From Mobula hypostoma (taxonomy: Eukaryota), in contig NC_086108.1 of NCBI RefSeq assembly GCF_963921235.1, positions 89,220,001-89,284,000 on the forward strand: a DNA stretch of 64,000 nt, written 5' to 3'. Of the stretch, positions 9,546 to 61,439 are shown piece by piece (the first letter of the stretch is position 1; each line of letters starts with the position of its first letter). The notes below the pieces were generated by a model. That model saw only the letters and a program-made list of their open reading frames with translations, made no database searches and was not told where the DNA came from. The position numbers and the translations under genes are program-made.

Positions 9546-9902
9546 TTGTGTAGAACTAGGTCACTCCAAAGGACCCCAAGCACTCACTTAAACTTTTACA
9601 AAGAGTTTTGTATGAAGCTTGAGGACCTGTTGAATCTGTTGGAGGAATGTCTCTGTTCAGTGCTGCATCACAAATTCACGGTATATGTTGCTTTGACATT
9701 GGCAGGGAAAGAGACTCCAATTTCCTCACTATGCAACTTCTATCTTGGGGTCACCAGCAAATTGCATTAAGATCAGTCAACCGATTGTGTAATCATCTCT
9801 TTGATCAGTCTTTCAAAGGCTCATGACATGATTCAGAGTCACTGGATTGTCCAGCATTATTGGACCAAATGATGTTCATGCAGTGTTGTTATTCCTAGTT
9901 GT

Positions 9903-10243
9903 AGAATACACCTTCTGGTGCTAATTGGACATGTCTTCAGTGATGAACCCAGGGTCATAGGGGGTTTCGGGCCTTTAGTCATCAGATAACCTCGACCGGG
10001 TGACCCAGCCGGAGGTGATCAGCCCCTGACTTGTGTCATAGTCGCACACTAATCTACGAATACCCCCTCCGGATCCACAGCCACCGCGAGGCCTTTTCAG
10101 CAGCCTCCAGAATGTTCTGGTGGCTGTTCTATACTGCAGTTCTTTAACTCCAAGGAGATTTAGAGTCCGCTGTAATGAATGGCCCGCAAAGCCCCGGCAC
10201 CCAACTTCGACTGGCTCACAGCGAGCTCTCCAGCCATTGCTCC
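9903..10243 (-). repeat. Hero 3'-terminal repeat unit (downstream copy)
   Basis: Aligns end-to-end with 13509-13848 at roughly 90% identity by eye. Confidence 0.9.
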
Positions 10244-13200
10244 ATCATTCTGCAACAAGATCTGTGCATCTCGCCCTCTTGTGCTCGTTGGCCTCTTCAA
10301 TCCGGTCTTCCCAGGGGACAGTAAGTTCCAGCAGGACCACTTGCTTTGTAAACTCCGATATTAACACCATGTCCGGGCGGAGCGGAGTGGCTGCGATGTT
10401 CTCTGGAAACTCGAGCTGCCTCCCTAGGTCTGCTTGGAGCTACCAGTCTCGTGCAGTGGAAGCAGCCCTCCCAAGGAGACAGGCCGATGTTAAGCCTTCT
10501 CCCCCGCTCTAATAAAGGTGATGGACTGTTTGGGAGCGTGCTGATTTTTGCTGTCTTGAATCGCTGTGCTGATTGCATCCGCCATAGACCTTAGGCCTCG
10601 GTCATGGCGCCAGCGGTATCGGCAGCAACTTAGGATATGCTCCAAGGTGCCCCTCTTCTGGCACAGTTGGCATGCTGGAGTGTTTGCCATGCCCCACCTG
10701 TGCAGGTTGGCCGGGTTTGGGAGAACATCATAGACTGATTGGATAAGAAACTTGATGCGCATTGGTTCAGCTCTCCAGAGCTCTGTCCGGGTGAGCTTGC
10801 GAGGTTCCGCATGCTCCCATCTAGTCCAGGCGCCTTGTTTGTACATGCCGGCCATCTTGCTGTATCGTTCTTCCTCCACTTCCGCTCGTATCTCATCCTG
10901 AACCAGTTGATACTTCTCCTTTCCACGGGTTTTGTCGTAGCGTGGTTTGGGAAAACAGCCCAGTCTTTCCCGCCCCACCGCCACAGTGGCCACCAAAATG
11001 TTGAGCCGCAGCCGTACCTCCGCTCTGTCGACAGCTTCCTGTGCCTGCCACTTCCTTCCGGTCTTTACGCGGATTCCTGCTGAAGCGACTTTAACATCAG
11101 AGGAGTCTCGGTACATCATAACCTCCCTGGCTCGAGTGACTTTGAACTCCTCTGATAGGCCGCTGGCGGGGAGCTGCAGCTTGGTGGAACACCCATACAG
11201 GACAATGCAGCTTGAGGTCCGGGGGAGACCCAGCCACCTCCGGAGAAACTGACTGATGGTCTTCTCCAGAGCCTCCACTGTTGACATTGGCACCTTGTAG
11301 ATTAGAAGGGGCCAGAGTAGCCTTGGCAGGACTCCGTGTTGGTACATCCAGGCTTTGAAATTTCCTGGAAGCCCCAATTTGTCAGTCATGGTGAACCAAG
11401 TTATCGAGTCACTCCTGGTTTGTTGAAGTGCGGCTGTGTCCTTCAGGGAACTGTCAAAGATCTTGCCCAGGCTCTTGACTGGTTTTCCTGTCACTGTTGG
11501 AATCTGGATCCCTCCCAGGGTAAAGCAGAACTGGTCGGCCACTCTTCCCTTCTTCAGGACCAGAGACCTGGACTTGGCTAGATTAAAGCTCATCCTTGCC
11601 CATGAGATGAGTCATTCCAGCCCATGAAGGAGCCATCTGCACCCAGAGACGGATGTTGCCATCACCGTCAGGTCGTCCATGAATGCTCTTATGGGGGCTG
11701 CCGAGTACCAGATCTAGACGTGGAGCCTCTACATCCCACCTCCGCTGACTTGACAATCAGGTTCATGGCCAATCAGAAGAGTGGCACCGAGATTGTGCAG
11801 CCAGTGATTGTGCCCTTCTCCAGCCGATGCCAGGCGGATGTTACTGACCCTGAGGACGCTCTCAACCTGAAGTCGCTGTAATAATCCAGAATGAGGTTTC
11901 AGATCATCTCTGGAACGTGGTGTCTTGTCAGTGCTGTTTCAACGAGTTTGTGTGGGATGGATCCATAGGCATTGGTTAGGCCTAACCAGAGTGCTGCAAG
12001 GTCTCCTTTTGCCTCCCGGATCAGCTGGACCACCACTCCTGTGTGCTCTAGGCATCCGGGTACTCCTGGGACTCCCCCCTTCTGTACTGAGGTGTCTATG
12101 TGTCCATTCTTCAAGAGGAACTCAGTTAAACGATGGACCACAATCTTGAAGATCTTCCCTTCAACGCTGAGCAGCAAGATAATATGAAACTGCTCGATGT
12201 TGCTTGAATCCTCCTCTTTTGGTATCCAGACACCCTCCCCATGCCTCCACTGAGCAGCGACCTTTCCTCTCTGGCAGATCAACTTTAAGATCTTCTAGAG
12301 TCACACAAGAAGCCTTGGGCACTGCTTGTAGACTTTGTAAGGCACTCCACTGGGGCTAGGGGTGGAACTTGCTCTTGCTGCTTTGACTGCTTCTTTGACC
12401 TCCTTCAGGGTGGGTTCAGAAATGTCGAATTGGGTCACCGGTTCTGGAGGTATCACCAGTGCCTCACATGGGCCGAGGTCCTGCTTTCTTGAGGTGGCAC
12501 TGAAAGTGATACTGAGATGGTGGTTTATCTCCTCTACAAAACAAGTGAGGTGGCCATTTCGCTTCTGTCCTAGTATCCTCTTGGTGAAGCCGAAGGGATT
12601 GGTAATGAAAGCGCTGTGCTTTGGGCCCTCTCCTTGCCCTTCCTTCGGTGCCACTCAGCCCACCTGAGTGTGATGAGCCTCCTCCTCATGATATCTGTGA
12701 GGTCTGACAGGCCAGTCTTCTCCTCCTCCTTGGCCAACTTAAATTGGTACTTCAGAGATTTGAGGTCTTGTCTCAGCTGGCTGATCTTCAGTTCCTGCCG
12801 GTTTGGTCTCGCTGGATTACTTGTTCCATGCTTTTCCTTGACGCCAAACCATTCTGAGCCTATGCTCATTATGAGGGTGCACATAGTCCAGAGCCTCTGG
12901 TCAGCATTGACCTTCGATATCACCTCCAGAATTTTGTCTACGTCCTTATCCATCTGGAGCCACTCCTTCTTGTTAGTGGCAGGCCACTTCGCCTGACGCT
13001 GTTCTGACTTTCTGCTCACTGGGAAGACTTGTGTTGCTTGGAGGTTCCGGGCACTGTTGGGTGACTCCGACTGGGCTCCTCCTCTGTCTGACCAGGTTCT
13101 GTAGTCAGCACCACAGAGCTTGTAGTACTAGCTACTGCTCCTGTGCGTTGTTTCACTCGTTTCCTCCTCGAGCAGGCCATCTTTGTCTGGTGGATCTTCA

Positions 13201-13508
13201 GACCTCTCAGGTATTTGTACACCTTGCCACAGATACAAACTACGCTCATAGTCGATCGTCCACCTGCTTGAGTCATTGCCAATAGGTCCGTCCGATTGGG
13301 ATGCTCATCCTCCCCCCCCCTCTCGAGCATCCCTGGGGGTATGTTTCAGAAGGGTTCTTCGTAGCTTGTTTGGGTGCTCCCTCACAGGAGCTGCAGTTCA
13401 GGGTGCTAGCCCTTGCTGCCCCGTTTGCCGTCTTTCCGTGCTGTCTGCTGTCTCTCCAGCCGTCACCATTCTATTCATGGCCGTCATCCAGACTTTCCTA
13501 CAGGTCAC

Positions 13509-13848
13509 AGAATTCACCTTCTGGTGCTACTTGGACACGTCTTCAGTGATGAACCCTGGGTCATAGGGTGTTTCGGGCCTTTAATCATCAGACAACCTCG
13601 ACTGGGCGACCCAGCCGGGGGTGATCAGCCCCTGACTTGTGTCCAAGTGGCGCACAAATCCACGGATCCCCCTCCGGATCCACAGCCACCGCGAGGCCTT
13701 TTCAGCAGCCTCCAGAATGTTCTCGGTGGCTCTTCTGCACTGCAGTCCTTTAACTCCAAGGAGTTTAGAGTCCGCTGTAATGAATGGCCCGCAAAGCCCC
13801 GGCACCCAACTTCGACTGGCTCACAGCGAGCTCTCCAGCCATTGCTCC
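13509..13848 (-). repeat. Hero terminal repeat unit (upstream copy of the element's 3' end)
   Basis: Direct repeat of 9903-10243, placed 5' of the element's 5' UTR. Contains the ORF C-terminus (ARCEPVEVGCRGF...WLW) and the 3' UTR. Confidence 0.9.
13533..13614 (-). ncRNA. Candidate pseudoknotted hammerhead-like RNA motif (Hero family 1)
   Basis: RNA: CUGGGUC..AGGUUG-UC|UGAUGA-UUAAAGGCCC-GAAA-CACCCU-AU-GACCCAG-GGU-UCAUCA-CUGAAGA. Stem I and stem III pair, but stem II is poorly supported. Confidence 0.5.
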
Positions 13849-13860
13849 TCAATATAATAA

Positions 13861-15610: not shown

Positions 15611-18600
15611 TTACATTAAATGAAAATATCGAATAAAAGGTCCCCAAATCTGTTCAAATTTAAATGAAGAATCATAAAGGTTACTTCTAATTTTCTCCAG
15701 ATTCAAACATAAAATCGTCTGAGAAAACCAAAAAAAGGTAGTTGGAGCATTAAGCTCTTTCCAATGTTGTAAAATACATCTTTTCGCCATTAAAGTAAGA
15801 AATGCAATCATTCTACGGGCTGAAGGGGAAAGATTACTAGAAATTTTAGGTAGTCCAAAGATAGCAGTAATAGGGTGAGGAGAGATATCTATATTTAATA
15901 CCTTAGAAATAATATTGAAAATATCTCTCCAAAAAGTTTCCAAAGTAGGGCAAGACCAAAACATATGAGTTAAAGAGGCTATCTGCCCCGAACATCTATC
16001 ACAGAAAGGATTAATATGCGAGTAAAAACGCGCTAACTTATCTTTGGACATATGTGCTCTATGCACCACTTTAAATTGAATTAGGGAATGTTTAGCACAA
16101 ATAGAGGAAGTATTAACTAATTGTAAAATCTGCCCCCAATCATCCACAGAAATGGTAAGCCCCAATTCCTGTTCCCAATCTACCCTAATCTTATCAAATG
16201 GAGCTTTCCTGAGTTTCATAATAATATTATAAATCATAGCCGATGCACCTTTCTGACATGGATTAAGGTTAATTATCGAATCTAAAATATATATAGGAGG
16301 AAGCATTGGAAAGGAAGGAAGTATAGTACTTAGAAAATTTCTAACTTGTAAATATCTAAAAAAATGTATTCTTGATAGGTTATATTTATTAGATAATTGT
16401 TCAAAAGACATAAGGGAACCATCTAAAAATAAATCCAAAAACCGTAAAATACCCTTAGTCTTCCAAGTTTGAAAAGCGCGATCCGTAAAAGAGGGAGGAA
16501 AAAATATGTTACCTAAAATAGGAATCGCTAACCCGAATTGATTAAGATCAAAAAATTTTCTGAATTGAAACCAAATACGCAAAGCATATTTAACGATCGG
16601 GTTAGAGACCTGCTTAAGGCGTTTCGAATCAAAAGGAAGAGATGAACCTAAAATAGAACCAAGTGTATAACCCTGAACAGATTGTAATTCCAATGCTACC
16701 CATTTAGGAATAGATAGTATATCCCGGTCAAGTAACCAAAATTTCATATGTCGAATATTAATAGCCCAATAATAAAATCTAAAGTTAGGTAATGCTAAAC
16801 CTCCATCTCTCTTAGCTTTCTGTAAATGTATTTTACCCAGTCTCGGATTCTTATTCTGCCAAATAAATGAAGAAATTTTAGAGTCGACTTTATCAAAAAA
16901 AGATTTAGGAACGAAAATTGGTAATGCCTGAAACACATATAAAAATTTTGGCAAAAAAAACATCTTAACTGCATTAATACGACCAATCAAAGTTAAATAT
17001 AAAGGAAACCATTTAGATGAAAGTTGAGTAATATGGTCTATTAATGGTAAAAAGTTAGTCTTAAATAAATCTTTATGTTTACAAGTAATTTTAATCCCAA
17101 GATATGAAAGGTAATTATTAATCAATTTAAATGGAAATTTATAATATAAGGGAAGATGTTTATTAATCGGAAAAAGTTCACTCTTACTAAGATTTAATTT
17201 ATAACCTGAGAAAAGACCAAATTGTGCTAATAACTCTAAAACAGCAGGAATAGATCTCTCAGGATTAGAAATATATAAAAGTAAATCATCAGCATAGAGT
17301 GATAATTTATGGGACTTTAATCCCCGAGTTATCCCAGTAATATTTGAAGATTCTCGAATAGCAATTGCAAGAGGTTCTAATGCAATATCAAATAATAGGG
17401 GACTAAGAGGACAGCCTTGTCGAGTACCACGAAAGAGAGGAAAAAAAGGTGAGTTTAAAGAGTTAGTACGAACCGAGGCTACAGGGGAGTGATATAACAG
17501 TTTAATCCAGGATATAAATTTCAGGCTAAAATTAAACATTTCAAGCACCTTAAATAAATAAGGCCATTCTACTCTATCAAAAGCTTTCTCGGCATCTAAA
17601 GAAATAACACACTCAGGAACATTTTGTGAGGGAGTAAGAACGATATTTAACAATGTACGAATATTATAAAAAGAGTAACGACCTTTAATAAAACCCGTTT
17701 GGTCTTCCGAAATAATAGAAGGAAGTACTTTTTCTAGTCTATTTGCTAATAACTTAGAAAAAACTTTAGAATCAACATTTAATAAAGATATTGGTCTATA
17801 AGATGCACATTGAGCAGGGTCTTTATCCTTCTTTAGTATTAAAGAAATTGATGCTCTATTAAAAGATTCCGGAAGTTTACCAAGTTTCAAAGAAGCCTCA
17901 AAAACCTTATAGAGCCAAGGAATCAATAAAGAAGCAAAACATTTATAAAATTCAACAGTAAACCCATCAGGGCCAGGAGCTTTCCCCAGATTCATAGAAA
18001 AAATAACATTCTTAATCTCATCCATTGTAATGGAAGTATCTAATAAAGAAGACATATCCTGTGAAATCTGAGGAAAGTCTAACTTATCTAAAAAATCATT
18101 CATATATTTAGAATCTCGAGGAGACTCTGATTGATATAAAGAAGAATAAAAATCACAAAAGGTTTGATTAATCCCCACATGATCCAATATCAATCGATCA
18201 TTTTGGTTATAAATCTGATTGATTTGAGATTTAACATAATTAGATTTCAATTGATTAGCCAGCAGCTTGCCAATTTTATCACTGTGAACATAAAAATCAC
18301 TTCTTGTTTTCTTTAATTGGTTTACAATCGAGGACGAGAGTAGTAAACTGTGTTCCATTTGAAGTTCAGTTCTTTGTTTGTATAGCTCCTCAGAAGGAGC
18401 CATAACATATTTCTTATTAATTTCTTTAATCTTGTCCACAATTGCCATCTCCTCCTGCTTCTGTTTCTTCCTCAAAGCAACGGAATACGAAATAATCTGA
18501 CCCCGAATATAGGCTTTAAAAGTGTCCCAAAGAGTGTTAACCGAAATATCTTCTGTATGGTTAATTATAAAAAAAAGCTCAATCTGTTCATTCATAAAAT

Positions 18601-19387
18601 TAACAAAGTCCGAGTCCTGAAGCAACAGCGAATTAAAACGCCATTGTCTATTGTTTGGTATATTGGCCATAATTTTAATAGAAAGCTTAAGTGGAGCATG
18701 ATCCGAAATGGTTATAGAATCATAATCACATTTAATCACTGAAGGAATGAGACGAGAATCAATAAAAAAATAATCAATTCTTGAATAGGAATGATGAACA
18801 TGTGAAAAAAAGGAAAAATCTTTTTCCTGAGGATGCAGAAAACGCCAAATATCCGTCGACCCAGAATCAGAAAGGAAAAAATTAATCAAATTTGCAGATT
18901 TATTAGGTAAAGTCCGTAAAGGAGCCGAACGGTCCAAAGCTGGAGATAAACAGGTATTAAGATCTCCGCCCCAAATCAATGAAAACTCGTTCAAATTCGG
19001 AAACTGATCAAACAATGATTTATAAAATTCCGGACAATCCATATTAGGAGCATAAACATTAACCAAAACTACTTTTTTATTAAATAGTAAACCACTAACC
19101 AATAAAAATCTACCATTCGGATCAGAGATAATATCCTGTTGTATAAAAGTAACTGAGGAATCTATAAAAATAGAGACGCCTCGAATCTTAGCATTGGAGT
19201 TCGAATGAAATTGTTGTCCCTTCCAGAATTTGAAAAAACGTAGTCTGTCCCCCCTCCGTACATGGGTCTCTTGTAAAAATAAAATTTGTGCTTTAAGTCT
19301 CCGGAACACTTTAAAAACTTTTTTTCTTTTAATAGGATGATTAAGACCATTAGTATTCCAGGAGACAAAATTAATAATAGACTCCAT
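15611..19387 (-). CDS. L1 ORF2p: APE endonuclease, reverse transcriptase, CCHC domain (1258 aa, uninterrupted)
   Basis: SWNTNGL, LQETH, GGDLN, SRIDYF, SDH; KAPGPDG, YRPISLLN, LDAEKAFD, GTRQGCPLSP, YADD; CDRC..HMFWSC. First ATG at 19387. Confidence 0.95.
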   Translation of the reverse strand: MESIINFVSWNTNGLNHPIKRKKVFKVFRRLKAQILFLQETHVRRGDRLRFFKFWKGQQFHSNSNAKIRGVSIFIDSSVTFIQQDIISDPNGRFLLVSGLLFNKKVVLVNVYAPNMDCPEFYKSLFDQFPNLNEFSLIWGGDLNTCLSPALDRSAPLRTLPNKSANLINFFLSDSGSTDIWRFLHPQEKDFSFFSHVHHSYSRIDYFFIDSRLIPSVIKCDYDSITISDHAPLKLSIKIMANIPNNRQWRFNSLLLQDSDFVNFMNEQIELFFIINHTEDISVNTLWDTFKAYIRGQIISYSVALRKKQKQEEMAIVDKIKEINKKYVMAPSEELYKQRTELQMEHSLLLSSSIVNQLKKTRSDFYVHSDKIGKLLANQLKSNYVKSQINQIYNQNDRLILDHVGINQTFCDFYSSLYQSESPRDSKYMNDFLDKLDFPQISQDMSSLLDTSITMDEIKNVIFSMNLGKAPGPDGFTVEFYKCFASLLIPWLYKVFEASLKLGKLPESFNRASISLILKKDKDPAQCASYRPISLLNVDSKVFSKLLANRLEKVLPSIISEDQTGFIKGRYSFYNIRTLLNIVLTPSQNVPECVISLDAEKAFDRVEWPYLFKVLEMFNFSLKFISWIKLLYHSPVASVRTNSLNSPFFPLFRGTRQGCPLSPLLFDIALEPLAIAIRESSNITGITRGLKSHKLSLYADDLLLYISNPERSIPAVLELLAQFGLFSGYKLNLSKSELFPINKHLPLYYKFPFKLINNYLSYLGIKITCKHKDLFKTNFLPLIDHITQLSSKWFPLYLTLIGRINAVKMFFLPKFLYVFQALPIFVPKSFFDKVDSKISSFIWQNKNPRLGKIHLQKAKRDGGLALPNFRFYYWAINIRHMKFWLLDRDILSIPKWVALELQSVQGYTLGSILGSSLPFDSKRLKQVSNPIVKYALRIWFQFRKFFDLNQFGLAIPILGNIFFPPSFTDRAFQTWKTKGILRFLDLFLDGSLMSFEQLSNKYNLSRIHFFRYLQVRNFLSTILPSFPMLPPIYILDSIINLNPCQKGASAMIYNIIMKLRKAPFDKIRVDWEQELGLTISVDDWGQILQLVNTSSICAKHSLIQFKVVHRAHMSKDKLARFYSHINPFCDRCSGQIASLTHMFWSCPTLETFWRDIFNIISKVLNIDISPHPITAIFGLPKISSNLSPSARRMIAFLTLMAKRCILQHWKELNAPTTFFWFSQTILCLNLEKIRSNLYDSSFKFEQIWGPFIRYFHLM

Positions 19388-20111
19388 AAATCCTAAAGTC
19401 AACCCACGACAAGGAGGATTGACAATAGGCGCGACCCACAAACCCGGAGAGGAAACAGAACATACAAAAGATACCGGGGAAAAGGACGCAACCAGTACTT
19501 CAATAATGTATATAGCCCAAAGAAAAACAAACTAAAACGTGAAGCCCCTCCCGCCACCCCCCAGCCCAACACCCCCAGGCAAAATCTAAAGCAGACCCGC
19601 CCGAAAGAAGCAAGCGCAAAAACTACCCCCATGACTTCCGGTATACGCTCCCTAAAAAAAAGGTATAAATATGAAAAGGATCAGCTAATTGTAAAACAGT
19701 AAAAAAATAAGTAAAAAAAAGTTAGCTCAATTAGAATACACACAGAACAGAACAAAAGCCGGAAAATATATATTAAAAAAAAAACCACAATAAACCTCAA
19801 ACTCATGAATAGACACAGCAACAAAAAAAAATAGGATTATTAACATAAAGTGATTATAAAAAGCAAAACAGAATAAAATTTAAACAAAAACTACAAAATT
19901 TAAGGCCGCACAGGAAATACGTAAGATAACAAAAGGGAAGTAACCACCCAGAATCCCCTGGGAAAAGAAAGAAATGACGCAGTTAAAAAGAAAGTTTAGT
20001 AGCCATATTAAGAAATCGAAAGTAAACTTTTCTGCCCAAATAGGGCACAGAAAAGTTAAAACCAACCAATTCACAGCCTCCGATCAACGGAGAAAATTAA
20101 AAAGAAAGCAA

Positions 20112-55591: not shown

Positions 55592-56662
55592 TCAGAAGAG
55601 CCCAAGCTAGAATTGAACTGAAAGTACACGTGGACTAAGGTGTTAACAGTCCTGTGCTATCACCAGTGGGATCATCAGTTGATCTGCCACCTGTCTTCAG
55701 GAGTTTCGGCCTGCTTATGATCAAGACTCCCTCAAGGTGGTGGGCCAGCAGTGCTAAAGCACCACCTCCCACTGGTGAGCTTAAAAACTTGGCATCTGCC
55801 TCTATCAGAGTTGTTGGTCACTTCCATCCAACAGATGGTCTGTTCTTCAGGTGTCTATCCAACTACTGAAGGGTTTGCAAGATATGTATACACTGTCTGA
55901 CTATCCGCCCCTCTGGACATACTTGGTCCACACTCATGCTGATCCTTTCTCTGCTGCCTCAGCTGCAGCCCTGCTGGTTGACCTAATCTCTCTTCTAGTG
56001 AAGCCAAGGTCATGCAGCCACTTCTAGAAAGTGAACGCAATAAAGCCACGGCAGCCTACTTCGAATGGATAGCATGAGACCTTCCACCCTCTGTCTCTGC
56101 ACGCTGATCTTAATTCTGCATGCTTGGTTAACTTGCGCTGATGGACTTCATCGATGTTGTCTTCCCAGGGGACTGTGAGTTCACCAATAACCGCTTCTCT
56201 ACTGGTGTCAGACCATACGATTATATCTGGACGCAATGTGGTGAAAGCTATTTGCTCCGGGACACTGCCTTTCCCATCCAGGTCAGCCTTGACACACCAA
56301 CCATTGGCTGAAGAAAGTATGCTTGATCGTGAGCCTATGCTGCACACCTTTGACTTGGAGCTTTCTTTCACAAGTGATATGCGATGTTCTGTGCAGCATG
56401 GGGCATGAGATAAGTTGTGCTGCAGTACTCTCTGCTCAACCGCTTCTGTTACAACTTTGAGAACATTGTTATGTCTCCAGGTGTACGTGCCGCTGGAAAG
56501 ATTAACTCTGCATGCACTCAAAATATGTTGAAGTGTTCCCTTCTCGCCACAAGCAGCACAGCTGTCTGTCTTATCTTCATACCAGGTGCTGAGGTTGGCA
56601 GGTGTTGGGAGCAGATCGTACGCTGCCCTGTATAGAAAAGAAATGCGGAGCGGTTCCATCTG
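55592..56662 (-). mobile_element. 5'-truncated Hero-type RLE retrotransposon (family 2) inside the LTR
   Basis: ORF 56024-56668: YDLLPTPANL..W, CAACGEKGTLQHILSAC, TWRHN, RPDIIVWS, ELTVPWED, PFEVGCRGF. Candidate TSD ccac(c/a)aaaa. Confidence 0.85.
55665..55740 (-). ncRNA. Candidate pseudoknotted hammerhead-like RNA motif (Hero family 2)
   Basis: RNA: CCACCU-UGA-GGGAG-UC|UUGAUC-AUAAGCAGGCC-GAAA-CUCCU-GAAGAC-AGGUGG-CA-GAUCAA-CUGAUGA. Confidence 0.55.
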
Positions 56663-57599
56663 CCACAAAAACTATCCTTCAGAAATCTGCTCCTGCCCAG
56701 TACTCTCTGATGTTCTTCTGGGCAGAAAATTACAACACATACCAAGAAAACCCTGATCAGCTAACATCACATTCCTAAACTAGACAACATGGCTCCTTAG
56801 CTTTAACCAAAGTCAAAACACTCTGGCTAGTAGGACACATTGCTTTTACAGAAAACTGCTAAAATAAAAATACCTCACAGCATAGCAGTAGAAATCTTAC
56901 CCAGGGGATTATATTCTCTCCCCACTGAAAATTGTCAAGCCCTCATGCCTTTGGGACTTCTTAAACCATTATTAATAACACAGTAGTCAAATGAATTTCA
57001 TGATTTCATGACCCCAATCTATTTTTTAATGGAAGTATCATATCTCACATATGATGCAATACTCTGTTTCCACAGTGCCTCATATGCCAACCTACCTGGT
57101 GGTTTCCTGACTCTCTGAGACATCTCATCTTCAGCTTCTTCCACTTCAATCACTCTTTGTGACCATTCCTCTCGACTAGAAGATGCCTCTCCCTGTCCTT
57201 CACTCGTATCTTCCAGCTGCTCAGGTCCCCCTGCCACCTGACAGAAATCAACTTCGTCCCCAATTGTGTTGGAGCCCAGTTTCACCTCACTGTCTATTAT
57301 CACGTTTGACTGCTCACTTCTTCTTCTCCCCACTTTATCTGAGTCAGGACAGGGAGATTCAGACATCTCTTCATCAATTCTTGAGGAGTTTGTATGCATA
57401 CCATACTCCCATTTCCTCGCCCTCTGAGTCTGTACAATGTTCAGTGGTTGGTTCCTTTTCAAGATTTCCACTGAAATCACACTATTGTAGCTGTTTGCTT
57501 TTCTGTTCTTCCTCTGTGCAGATTTCTCCTAGATGTCAGGCTCTGGGTCAACACATACGTCCCGCCCTAGGAGTAAAAGATGATTCCAATGGAGAATTT

Positions 57600-59375
57600 T
57601 GATTTCCATCCTCTGGCTCCACCCGGAAAACTGGCAAATTTGGCATCTGGCTCTCCACTACGTAAGGCATAGCAACCCAGCGATGGCCAACTTATGCTTC
57701 CCTTGTAACCCTAAATTTCTTATTAGAACTCTGTCTTCAGGCATCAGTTGATGGAACCTAATCTTTTGATCATATCCGTTCTTGTTTCCTTGGATTTGCT
57801 TGGTAGCAGAAACTGCTGCTAGCTCATAAACTTTTTGCAGTTCTTCCCTCATGTCAGACGTATACTTGAGATATGTTTTCTGCAGCAGGTCTTCGCTGCC
57901 AGTTCCAAAACAGAGAGCTACAGGTAATCTTACTCCATGTCCGAACTTCAAATAGTATGGGGAGTAGCCAATGGCTTCATTCTGTGTACAGTTGTAGCGG
58001 TGTATACCAAATGCCCAAAATGCTGACACCACTTGTTCATTTTGCTGATATCCTGAGTTCTGAACATGTCTAACAATGTCTGGTTGAACCTTTCAGGCTG
58101 GGGATCACCCTGAGGGCAATATGGCGTAGTCCTTGACTTCCTGTCTCCAAGCACGACCAGTAACTCATGTATGAGCTGACTCTCAAAATCCCTTCTCTGA
58201 TCACTGTATATCTTTCTTGGGATACTTCTCCCATAACACTTTGGCAACTGTGGACGCTCTCTGATCCTTCATCCGGAAGGCTTGAGCATATCTGGTGTAG
58301 TGATCTGTGATGACCAAGGCATTTGCAGCATTACTGTAATCAGGCTTTCTGGAGAGGAAATCCATACACAGTAAATCGAGTGGTCCCATACTTTGTAAAT
58401 GAGATAATGGAGCAACTCTTGTAGGCAGCATTTTTGCCTTTGAATACATCAAATGCATGACTTAGAGTACTTTTCAACCTCAGACTTCATTGGAGGCCAA
58501 TAGAAATGATCTCGGACCAACTCGAAGGTCTTGTCAAACCCCAAATGACCTGAATCATCATGAAGTGACTTCAACACCATCTTCCAATACTTCTCAGGTA
58601 AAACTAACTGGGAACGTTTAGGTCTGTCTGAAGTAGACATGACCCTGTATAAAACTTTGTTCCTCAACTCCAGTTTGTCCCATTCCCTCATCAGTAGGGG
58701 TATGATAGAGTGTTTTGTCTTCTCAACTTGGGCCATATCCCATTTGATAACAGATGACCAAATGGCACCTGTATAAGGGTTGTCTTGCTGGGCTGCTGCC
58801 AATTCTGCAGGACTCAAGGCAGGCAACTGCTTTGTATTCAGAGTTGTCAAGTTGTAATATGCTTGTGGAATGGCATAGCTAGAAGCTCCAGAATGATCCA
58901 CCGTTCTATCAGACGATAGCATTTGTTCTGATTTCCCTACTGTAGAAAACTGGCACATTGCTTCAGCACCAGAGAGAGGAAAGTCCTCCCACTCTCCATC
59001 CATTTCCAGCACCCCATGTGAATGCCGTGACAATGCATCCACATCAAGATTCTGACTCCCCGGCTGATATTCAAGGCTGAAATCATAAGCAGACAGCACC
59101 ACCAGCCAGCTATGACCTGTAACATCTGACTTTGCTAAGGTCAGAATATGGGTCATTGAATTGTTGTCAGACTTCACCTTGAACTTGGCATCACATAGAT
59201 AGTCACTTAACTTATCCACCACTGCCATTTCAATGCCAGAATCTCCAATTAGTGTGTAGGATAGTTTTGTTCAGATGGTAACAGACCGGCTAACAGAGGT
59301 AACAGGTCTAAACCCTTTACCTTGGTCCTGATATAGAACACTGCCTAATCCCTCATGGCTGGCATCTGTATGCAG
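57600..59375 (-). pseudogene. Gypsy pol remnant: RNase H end and integrase
   Basis: LHDDSGHLG.DKT..LV...FYWP.M, CMDF, DHYTRYAQAF, YSDQ.RDFES, TTPY.PQG..QPERFNQTL, GYSPY.L.FG; frameshifted. Confidence 0.85.
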
Positions 59376-60572
59376 TGCCTACGATGGAAGTTCCCATTTG
59401 CTTCAAAAAGGCAACAATTATACCAGTGCCTAAGAAGAATAATGTGGGCTGCCTTAATGACTATCACCCGGTTCCACTCACGTCGACAGTGATGAAATGT
59501 TTTGAGAGGTTGGTCATGACTAGACTGAACTCCTGCCTCAGCAAGGACTTGGACCCACTGCAACTTGCCTATCACCAAAATAGGTCAATGGCAGATGCAA
59601 TCTTAATGGCTCTCCACACTGCTTTAGACCCTGGACAACACAAATATCTACCTCAGAATGCTGTTCATTGACTGTAGCTCAGCATTTAATACCATCATTC
59701 CCACAATCCTGATTGAGACGTTGCAGAACCTGGGCCTCTGTACCTCCCTCTGCAATTGGATCCTCGACTTCCTAACCCAAAAACCACAATCTGTGGAGAT
59801 TGGTAATAACACATCCTCCTCGCTGACAGTTCACATTGGCGAACCTCATGGGTGTGTGCTTAGTCCACTGCTCTGCTCTCTATATACATATGACCGTGTG
59901 GCTAGGCATAGCTTAAATACCATCTATAAATTTGCTGACGATACAACCATTGTTGGTAGAATCTCAGGTGGTGACGAGAGGACGTACAGAAGTGAGATAT
60001 GCCAACTAGTGGAATGGTGCTGCAGCAACAACCTTGCACTCAATGTCAGTAAGACGGAAGAAATGATTGTGGATTTCAGGAAGGGTAAGATGAAGGAACA
60101 CATACCAATCCCCATGGAGGGATCAGGGTTGAGAGAATGAGCAGCTTCAAGTTCCTGGGTGTCAAGATCTCTGAGGATCTAACCTGGTCCCAACATTTCA
60201 ATGTAGTTATAAAGAAGGCAAGACAGCGGCTATACTTTATTAGGAGATTCAGGAGATTTGGCATGTCAACAAATACACTCAAGAACTTCTATAGTTGTAC
60301 TGTGGAGAGCATTCTGACAGGCTACATCACTGTCTGGTATGGAGGGGCTACTGCACAGGACCGAAAGAAGCTGCAGAAAGTTGTAAATCTAGTCAGCTCC
60401 ATCTTGGGCACTAGCCTACAAAGTACCCAGGACACCTTTAGGGAGCGGTGTCTCAGAAAGGCAACATCCATTATTAAGGACCTCCTGCACCTAGGGCATG
60501 CCCTTTTCTCACTGTTACCATCAGGTAGGAGGTACAGAACCCAGTGATAATAAGCCTGATTCTGATCCTGAA
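59376..60572 (+). mobile_element. Rex1/Babar-like LINE fragment inserted in Gypsy pol
   Basis: CFKKATIIPVPKK..CLNDY.PV.LTS.VMKCFERLV, KFADDTT, FKFLGV, KARQRLYF; tail ctgattctgat. Confidence 0.85.
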
Positions 60573-61439
60573 CTGGGAGTTTGCACAGGAGCTTTATTCA
60601 GCACCTCTTTCAGCAGCTAAAATACTTCTTCACACTTTGCATTCTATCTCTCCCCGAAAGGTTCCGAAGGGCTATGATAAACCTTGCCTTCTTCTCCTTT
60701 CGTTCTCTTCCCTTTCTTCTCCAAGGGAGGTTAACCGCACAGAAGTTGATTCTCCAGTAGTACCCACAGAATCCAAGGAATGAACATAGGGCCCTCCCAT
60801 TCTTGGGCCTTGGCCATGTGGTGACCGCTTCTATCTGGGACAGATCCATAGCCACTCCATCCTCTGCAAGCAACATAGTTTACTAATGTTTTACAGAGAT
60901 GGCAATTCTCCAGTGACAGTTTCAAATCTTCAACTTTCAGGCAGTCTAGCACCTTCAGTAGCCTTGTTTCATGCTCCTCCAGTGTTGACCCGAACATTCT
61001 GAGATCATCCTAGTACACCAGTACCTTAAGCAGGTTCATGCCCCCAACAGTCTTCTCTGTGACACATTGCAAAGTAACCAGTGCTACTGATCAGCTACGC
61101 CAACATCACCTTATGAAACTCCTGTTGCAATGATAAGTAACCATCATACAGGTAATCATTAGAACTAAACCCAGAGATTTCTAGGGCACTGAGTGGCATC
61201 AGTGGTAAATGTGTCAAATACCAGCTGTAAAAGGATCTGCAAATTAAAGTAACTTGAGAACCTGTATCAAGTATGGCTCAAGCATAAATGCCTTCAATCT
61301 GTACGGATACATCTGAGCTTGGTTCCACTAAGCCTTCAGGAACATGGTTTTACACTCTAGTATTTTCCTTGATACCTTGATTGGAATGTGTTCTCTCCAA
61401 GATGCCAGGCCATTCCTTTTTTGGGTCCCTCTGACATTT

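Follow-up and report, generated by a model that had tools for sequence, protein, structure and literature searches.

The 3′ UTRs of two retrotransposon families from Mobula hypostoma contain the catalytic motifs of the hammerhead ribozyme in the order NUH-GAAA-CUGANGA, and the order CUGANGA-GAAA-NUH with a nested three-way junction, as in hammerhead types I–III, is not found here. This raises the question of whether the two UTRs encode a ribozyme, how its strands are wired, and what such an RNA might do for the element. The reading we favour, and hold to be rather probable, is a monomeric hammerhead in which the helix cycle of the published type SGC is opened inside its block C, and which would drive a cycle of cutting, closure and reverse transcription. 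The parts of this reading carry different weight: the RNA fold is almost certainly real, it very probably cleaves, and operation of the whole replication cycle is modestly probable.

Host elements and window copies

Both families are single-ORF retrotransposons encoding a reverse transcriptase (RT), a zinc knuckle and a PD-(D/E)xK restriction-like endonuclease (RLE), the features that define R2-group (RLE) non-LTR retrotransposons in the available part of PMC3636483. Candidate copies of the two UTRs number at least 1574 and at least 457 in the 3.5 Gb genome and are spread across many contigs; the candidate counts for the tail (at least 713) and the upstream half (at least 262) are lower bounds from which we draw no conclusion. 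Homologues occur in lancelet, sea urchin, fish and bivalves, the same host range that is published for Hero (available portions of PMC9004415 and PMC10294476). The name Hero was given in an earlier note on this DNA, and membership is supported indirectly, by the host range of the homologues and the dispersed copies.

The window (the whole 64,000-nucleotide stretch analysed) contains the family-2 and family-1 strings quoted in the earlier note, at the minus-strand places given there, and the predicted cuts map after C55725 and C13591 as it had placed them. A third copy of the motif, which had been overlooked, lies at about 10043–9923 on the minus strand with a cut predicted after C9985; it closes, on the 3′ side, the same family-1 insertion that carries the 13614 copy at its 5′ end. 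The elements comprise the following features:

55615..56668, minus strand: family 2 element, 5′-truncated, with a zinc-knuckle/restriction-like endonuclease remnant (56668–55922) and the 3′ UTR
13509..13850, minus strand: family 1 5′ terminal repeat of the element's own 3′ end (ORF end and 3′ UTR)
13529..13648, minus strand: family 1 candidate ribozyme copy in the 5′ repeat, decayed
13330..13508, minus strand: family 1 5′ UTR, an array of small UGAC-stem-GRRA-GA hairpins (approximate bounds)
10069..12995, minus strand: family 1 broken single ORF with RT, zinc knuckle and restriction-like endonuclease
9897..10043, minus strand: family 1 3′ candidate ribozyme copy and element 3′ end

In the 5′ copy of family 1, the stem II 10.x strand is predicted at 13612–13608 and CUGAAGA at 13546–13540, with the cut after C13591; the corresponding predictions for the 3′ copy are 10006–10002, 9940–9934 and C9985. 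Both copies are decayed and fail the strict descriptor described below, of which 55725 is the only match in the 64 kb window. Compared with 30 genomic copies per family, the window copies carry private changes. The two window 3′ UTRs, which the earlier note had treated as otherwise dissimilar, are homologous, with 70 identities over 127 columns, and do not count as independent cases. Rfam returned nothing in the window at gathering score, and merely weak miRNA/sRNA matches in six related loci.

Upstream of the family-2 copy, inspection by eye indicated a decayed Gypsy-like pol region (56900–61100, minus strand) with another repeat inside it. A 1306-aa RT-bearing ORF (15611–19531, minus strand) lies upstream of family 1; neither of the two belongs to the ribozyme finding.

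Wiring and covariation of the fold

The strands run in the order P0 (5′), hairpin Pa, stem II (10.x), interaction helix, kink-turn where present, stem III and the NUH at which cleavage is predicted, followed by stem I, stem II (11.x), GAAA, stem III, kink-turn, interaction helix, stem I, CUGANGA and P0 (3′). The family-2 copy is laid out as follows:

55767..55777, minus strand: 5′ strand of P0, the closing helix
55747..55766, minus strand: hairpin Pa, flush between P0 and G10.1
55742..55746, minus strand: stem II 10.x strand (G10.1 = 55746), upstream of the cleavage site
55735..55740, minus strand: 5′ strand of the I/II interaction helix (the outer helix of the earlier note)
55725..55733, minus strand: kink-turn GA, stem III 16.x and GUC triplet, with the predicted cut after C55725
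55719..55724, minus strand: stem I 1.x strand
55699..55712, minus strand: stem II 11.x, GAAA (55707–55704) and stem III 15.x
55687..55698, minus strand: kink-turn 3-nt bulge and GA, then the interaction helix 3′ strand
55672..55684, minus strand: stem I 2.x strand and CUGAUGA (55678–55672)
55661..55671, minus strand: P0 3′ strand, directly after A9

Position 55712 is A in the window copy; among 30 copies it is G in 22, A in six, and other or mis-anchored in two. The bounds originally given for the motif were too narrow, the true start lying about 37 nt further upstream at 55777, and the stretch proposed for transcription (55760→55640) excludes the P0 5′ strand and part of Pa.

The CUGANGA, GAAA and NUH core sits at the junction of stems I–III. 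Much of the original description survives, namely a pseudoknotted, re-ordered core with covarying stems I, III and outer helix, but the order held to be undescribed has been published as type SGC, and the stem II (G10.1:C11.1) thought not to be evident is present and covaries, its partner strand lying upstream of the cleavage site. It is with this strand that the five bases ahead of GAAA pair, and those following CUGANGA have their partner further upstream still. A9 and G10.1 are therefore not chain neighbours: A9 enters P0 and a flush Pa precedes G10.1, so that a four-way junction interrupts block C, and it is because of this split that the topology is newer than had been thought. The family-1 outer helix proposed earlier (CUGGGUC/GACCCAG) needs a window-private base and takes the strand that forms stem II across the clade; it is a private alternative pairing, and the homologous family-1 helix is CCCGG/CCGGG.

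P0 of at least 6 bp directly follows A9 in 41 of 52 sequences, compared with 13% when strands are swapped in from other sequences, and a hairpin fills the gap flush to G10.1 in 36 of 52. We infer that this perfect four-way junction stands in for the A9–G10.1 bond, with the core and stem II stacked and P0 and Pa stacked. The 10.1:11.1 pair is G:C in 41 of 46 sequences and G:U in four. Among the same number the NUH triplets are GUC (17), GUU (15), GUA (12) and AUA (2), with N7 and H17 varying and H never G, which at the level of sequence is the pattern expected of hammerhead catalysis.

A kink-turn comprises a 3-nt bulge and then tandem G.A/A.G pairs between two helices. Its signature separates stem III from the interaction helix in 32 of 52 sequences, the remaining 20 having other linkers. 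Loci L095, L105, L129, L137, L141, L157, L158 and L167 have no kink-turn signature and a short Pa (13–17 nt), and these lineages may represent a simpler fold suited to crystallography. Nested folding yields P0, Pa and the stem III/interaction rod, as well as rods competing with stems I and II; the crossing stems are absent from its output, the program being unable to form pseudoknots.

To assess conservation, 79 related metagenome-contig loci were fetched from the best 80 of 538 confirmed stretches; 53 of the loci could be resolved with a loose parser, and five near-duplicates were then removed. With two further loci, four genomic copies and the two copies of the window, the alignment (MAFFT, without structure) reached 56 rows; 24 of the 79 loci are unrepresented in it. 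Invariance of the core in this alignment is no evidence, because rows were picked for GAAA and CUGANGA. The helices can be judged from it, and across stem II (with its upstream strand), the interaction helix, stem III and stem I, 89.1% of cells are paired, with 266 double-sided cells versus 80 in shuffled alignments, and slid controls pairing at 35–47%. For P0 and Pa together, 75.2% of cells are paired (203 double-sided versus 85 shuffled). The interaction helix alone is 88% paired, giving the stem I–stem II contact that marks a hammerhead, and its three-dimensional role would by analogy be that in type SGC.

We controlled for kinship by mapping changes on a tree of 51 endonuclease fragments (33–82% identity, median 42%), which leaves out L080, L082, L114 and the window rows. 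In stem II, both sides of a pair changed on the same branch 25 times, with pairing kept in 20; the null gave 5.1 on average and at most 13 in 2000 draws. The corresponding values are 27 versus 7.6 for the interaction helix, 17 versus 5.5 for stem III and 20 versus 3.9 for stem I. The canonical SGC stem II was tried and rejected: at offsets 0 and +1, 47.5% and 50.7% of cells are paired and the first pair is broken in 49 and 27 of the 56 rows, respectively, while on the tree these registers give 13 same-branch changes versus 8–9, within the null. The +1 value compares with 43.8% in shuffles and is no better than slid controls, and only one of its 13 same-branch changes kept pairing.

A strict four-helix descriptor was then run on the 65 loci with at least 330 nt past the endonuclease match, near-duplicates included. 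It matched 47 of the 65. Among the controls, none of the 65 reverse strands and none of 1300 shuffles matched, and 24 of 4700 shuffles with the cores left in place did; in upstream stretches the descriptor matched once in 299, at a real repeat at the start of contig L104. The 18 misses comprise five loci parsed by a looser descriptor, seven that look decayed by eye and six that are blank in the stretch examined. With helices only and free spacer lengths, 44 of 65 loci scored at least 22 (reverse strand, 1 of 65). The 26 loci at 3/7 nt spacers gave CUGANGA in 26, GAA in 25 and GUH in 26, the remainder being mostly the same site in a shifted register; the search thus returned GAA, CUGANGA and NUH without their letters being specified. 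In viral contigs, 11 pattern matches yielded no confirmed case.

These results bear on the idea that the structure is a hammerhead look-alike, a non-catalytic docking site for the RT/endonuclease of the element. The structure lies 45–60 nt from the priming end, structured UTRs are bound by R2 proteins (part of PMC6765202), and P0 takes the canonical SGC place of the 10.x strand, in a register that does not pair. The conflict between P0 and stem II vanishes because stem II uses the upstream strand, with which all six helices occupy separate nucleotides. In addition, helices alone sufficed to retrieve the complete catalytic core, spaced as in hammerheads; N7 and H17 are unconstrained and H is any base but G, the conservation expected of catalysis. 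We regard the docking explanation as quite improbable.

Minimal stems force dimer action in hammerheads, and Hero-like stems differ. Every stem is complete within a single copy, at 4–7 bp, and the dimer action considered in the earlier note is not needed. A dimer or trans-acting hammerhead formed between two terminal repeats, with block C completed by another molecule, would have precedent in the dimer-acting hammerheads of Penelope elements (cited in PMC10085705 and in the available part of PMC6765202), and many Pa loops are palindromic (UGAUCA, GGCC); set against the complete stems, we consider it very improbable, and retain the monomeric hammerhead.

Relation to type SGC and other ribozymes

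The order NUH-GAAA-CUGANGA is that of the type-SGC hammerhead (HRIMA-1 and variants; Eckert et al. 2023, PMC10085705), which cleaves in vitro and is known there from metatranscriptomes only, with none in genomes of known organisms. That study counted six hammerhead permutations on the assumption that CUGAnGA and the adjacent stem I and II strands cannot be interrupted (block C), and noted that the gap from CUGAnGA to its stems never exceeds 1–2 nt in known hammerheads, a point that counts against tolerance of a break at A9/G10.1. Its search patterns, in the part available, place the stem II strand within 0–1 nt of CUGAUGA, and the Hero-like form is outside their reach because they need that strand next to CUGAUGA.

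The Hero-like form shares with type SGC four helices, the core, the block order S, G, C, and the sequence III - NUH - I - II - GAAA - III - interaction - I - CUGANGA ... II - interaction. It differs in that the 10.x strand follows CUGAUGA in type SGC (as far as the available text describes it), whereas here this strand is upstream and P0 and Pa come between A9 and G10.1. Unlike in SGC, the interaction helix is joined to stem III on both strands, often with a kink-turn signature, and the hosts are animal retrotransposons as opposed to metatranscriptomes. Since block C is not intact, the form is SGC-like in its working and no member of the type as defined.

Pseudoknot-containing hammerheads described in the accessible parts of Zhan et al. 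2024 (PMC11300833) and Perreault et al. 2011 (PMC3088659) share a base-paired I/II interaction helix. In the former, A9:G12 and G10.1:C11.1 form one short stem, unlike in the Hero-like form, and core insertions in the latter are 1–2 nt. HDV-like ribozymes of R2, L1Tc, RTE and related LINEs also release the element from a longer transcript; they belong to another ribozyme class, lie in the 5′ UTR and cut at the element start (PMC6765202, in part), whereas the Hero-like ribozyme is in the 3′ UTR with its predicted cut 87–112 nt inside the element. Closer in arrangement are the hammerheads of Penelope-like elements and retrozymes, which likewise place a ribozyme in the terminal repeat of a tandem or partial-tandem retroelement (portions of PMC6765202, PMC11167929 and bioRxiv 10.64898/2026.07.22.740005), and for which, in the same portions, internal priming and a circular RNA or rolling-circle step are proposed. 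The elements in question are GIY-YIG or non-coding ones, and their hammerheads are of the classical kind (in animal retrozymes type I, according to the part of the bioRxiv paper available), unlike the split-core pseudoknotted hammerhead of an autonomous restriction-like-endonuclease LINE.

We found no description of this Hero/split-SGC hammerhead in the literature covered, a scope that excludes most subscription journals and Repbase Reports, where HERO terminal repeats may figure. A split-core hammerhead is absent from the available parts of PMC7650587, PMC3636483, PMC3088659, PMC11300833, PMC13725137, PMC13580325 and PMC4640811. The predicted ribozyme is accordingly presented as a new, split-block-C form of the hammerhead SGC cycle in a new host class, and the route by which this LINE clade replicates is probably new as well. 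If true, a natural split form, present in animal genomes in thousands of copies, would widen the six-permutation rule and give eukaryotic genomes a pseudoknotted hammerhead. PMC10085705 raised a steric problem concerning stem III and the interaction helix, to which the kink-turn may be an answer.

Terminal repeats and the proposed replication cycle

We searched the genome with the family-1 5′ region and fetched the best 30 of 40 matches, among which 22 copies from three subfamilies reach the 5′ junction. In 20 of these 22 the element's own 3′ end lies directly upstream of the 5′ start, as a repeat of 23 to ~1060 nt (~1060 nt in L063, at least 270 nt in L080 and L082), joined at the same base in most copies. 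Subfamily 1a has the repeat in 11 of 12 copies. Of the 20 repeats, 15 run past the predicted cut, and in 14 the length suffices to hold another complete ribozyme. When the two terminal repeats of a single copy were compared, in five pairs, they had 14 common variants versus ~3.8 expected (7 versus 0.6 without CpG), with no common non-CpG variant in two of the five; the window copy and L062 are not independent pairs because they are related. In metagenome contigs, which collapse repeats, 12 of 41 loci have a 3′ UTR that continues into the conserved hairpin array of the 5′ UTR. For family 2, inspection by eye found no shared 5′ start after any of 30 3′ ends.

From the predicted cut to the element end the distance is 87 nt in family 1a and 112 nt in family 2, so the template must retain the 3′ piece. 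The 5′ ends do not cluster at the cut, with just two of 20 lying 6–9 nt from it. The window family-1 copy combines a deletion at its junction with an intact 3′ tail, and one circle does not account for both.

The proposed cycle, the simplest that would sustain itself, would start with transcription of a terminal-repeat copy through two ribozymes, with the RNA cut at both. The resulting unit-length RNA could be closed by ligation or held shut by pairing alone, since four helices (P0, stem II, the interaction helix and stem III) bridge the cut. The element RT would then prime at a fixed internal site 87–112 nt past the cut, cross the cut (if ligated, or by a template jump) and continue beyond one round. 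The 5′ repeats left behind would vary in length, and any that included another complete ribozyme could restart the cycle. Such a scheme parallels models for Penelope elements and retrozymes (PMC6765202 and bioRxiv 10.64898/2026.07.22.740005, in part). Against the cycle stand the scatter of 5′ ends relative to the cut, the junction deletion beside an intact tail in the window copy, the missing junction in 30 family-2 copies, and an anole Penelope element for which hammerhead cleavage is dispensable for insertion in vitro (available section of PMC11167929).

Alternatively, a real ribozyme might do no more than trim transcripts of a tandem parent at their 5′ end, or aid cap-independent translation, with no circle formed and with repeats arising from uncleaved read-through RNA or end-to-end template jumps. 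The unmarked cut among the 5′ ends and the missing family-2 junction in 30 copies fit such trimming, as do the reports that Penelope-like elements have unprocessed RNA as their main substrate, with no reads ending at the cut (PMC11167929, in part), and that hammerhead cleavage is able to drive translation (PMC13725137, in part). A cut upstream only, however, allows a repeat of at most 87 nt, which 15 of the 20 repeats exceed. Read-through by itself should only shorten repeats over generations, and sloppy jumps would not be expected to give a junction identical to the base in most copies. We therefore judge trimming alone to be unlikely, and keep to the cut-closure-reverse-transcription cycle.

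In its fullest form, to which we lean slightly, the proposal is that the Hero clade of autonomous RLE LINEs replicates via an RNA that is cut by a ribozyme and is circular or pseudo-circular. The ribozyme would be a seventh hammerhead permutation, its fold closed by a kink-turn. The block split at A9/G10.1 would be rebuilt by the four-way junction, and the kink-turn possibly bound by a host L7Ae-family protein. If true, this would break the six-permutation rule for hammerheads as well as the LINE rule that a linear RNA is primed at its 3′ end. It would account for the way in which an R2-group element lacking site specificity might produce unit RNA and keep restoring its terminal repeats, and would represent convergence with Penelope elements and retrozymes. 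R2-group proteins are under development as gene-insertion tools (PMC13580325, in the text available), which would make an internally priming R2-group protein acting on closed RNA of practical interest.

The window copy (13509) and L062/L032 (G000:C50, ~2.7 Mb apart) have different flanks and the same short deletion where the repeat joins the 5′ UTR. The 5′ ends of the window copy and L062 are 96–99% alike, versus 87–92% for other copies, a likeness that reads as a shared parent or gene conversion. L097, L099, L104, L109 and L111 are metagenome contigs of ~3.8 kb (8 kb for L097) that open with their own 3′ UTR, as expected from assembly collapse of tandem or circular units.

The array of three to six small UGAC-stem-GRRA-GA hairpins in the window (13500–13330, minus strand) recurs in divergent Hero-like 5′ UTRs (L063, L082, L096, L100, L112, L113, L120, L133, L135, L143, L146, L152 and L166). 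It is without an Rfam match, and in the three loci translated the long ORF has no obvious early AUG; the array could be a protein-binding or cap-independent translation element. By eye, tRNA-like A-box/B-box stretches lie in the 3′ UTR just upstream of the ribozyme, before P0, in L113, L127, L148, L151, L159, L166 and perhaps L101, and could form an internal pol III promoter for the next unit; ARAGORN called no tRNA gene in eight loci with such stretches. In L161 the element 3′ end is followed by a long (TTG)n/(TTA)n run, and microsatellites are the target of some HERO families (available part of PMC4640811).

Finally, at 55622–55703 contig depth rises 3- to 30-fold in three of four runs guessed to be RNA, and contigs depart from the reference at exactly 55703 into similar foreign sequence. 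This interval may represent a SINE-like element with the family-2 tail only, minus blocks S and G.
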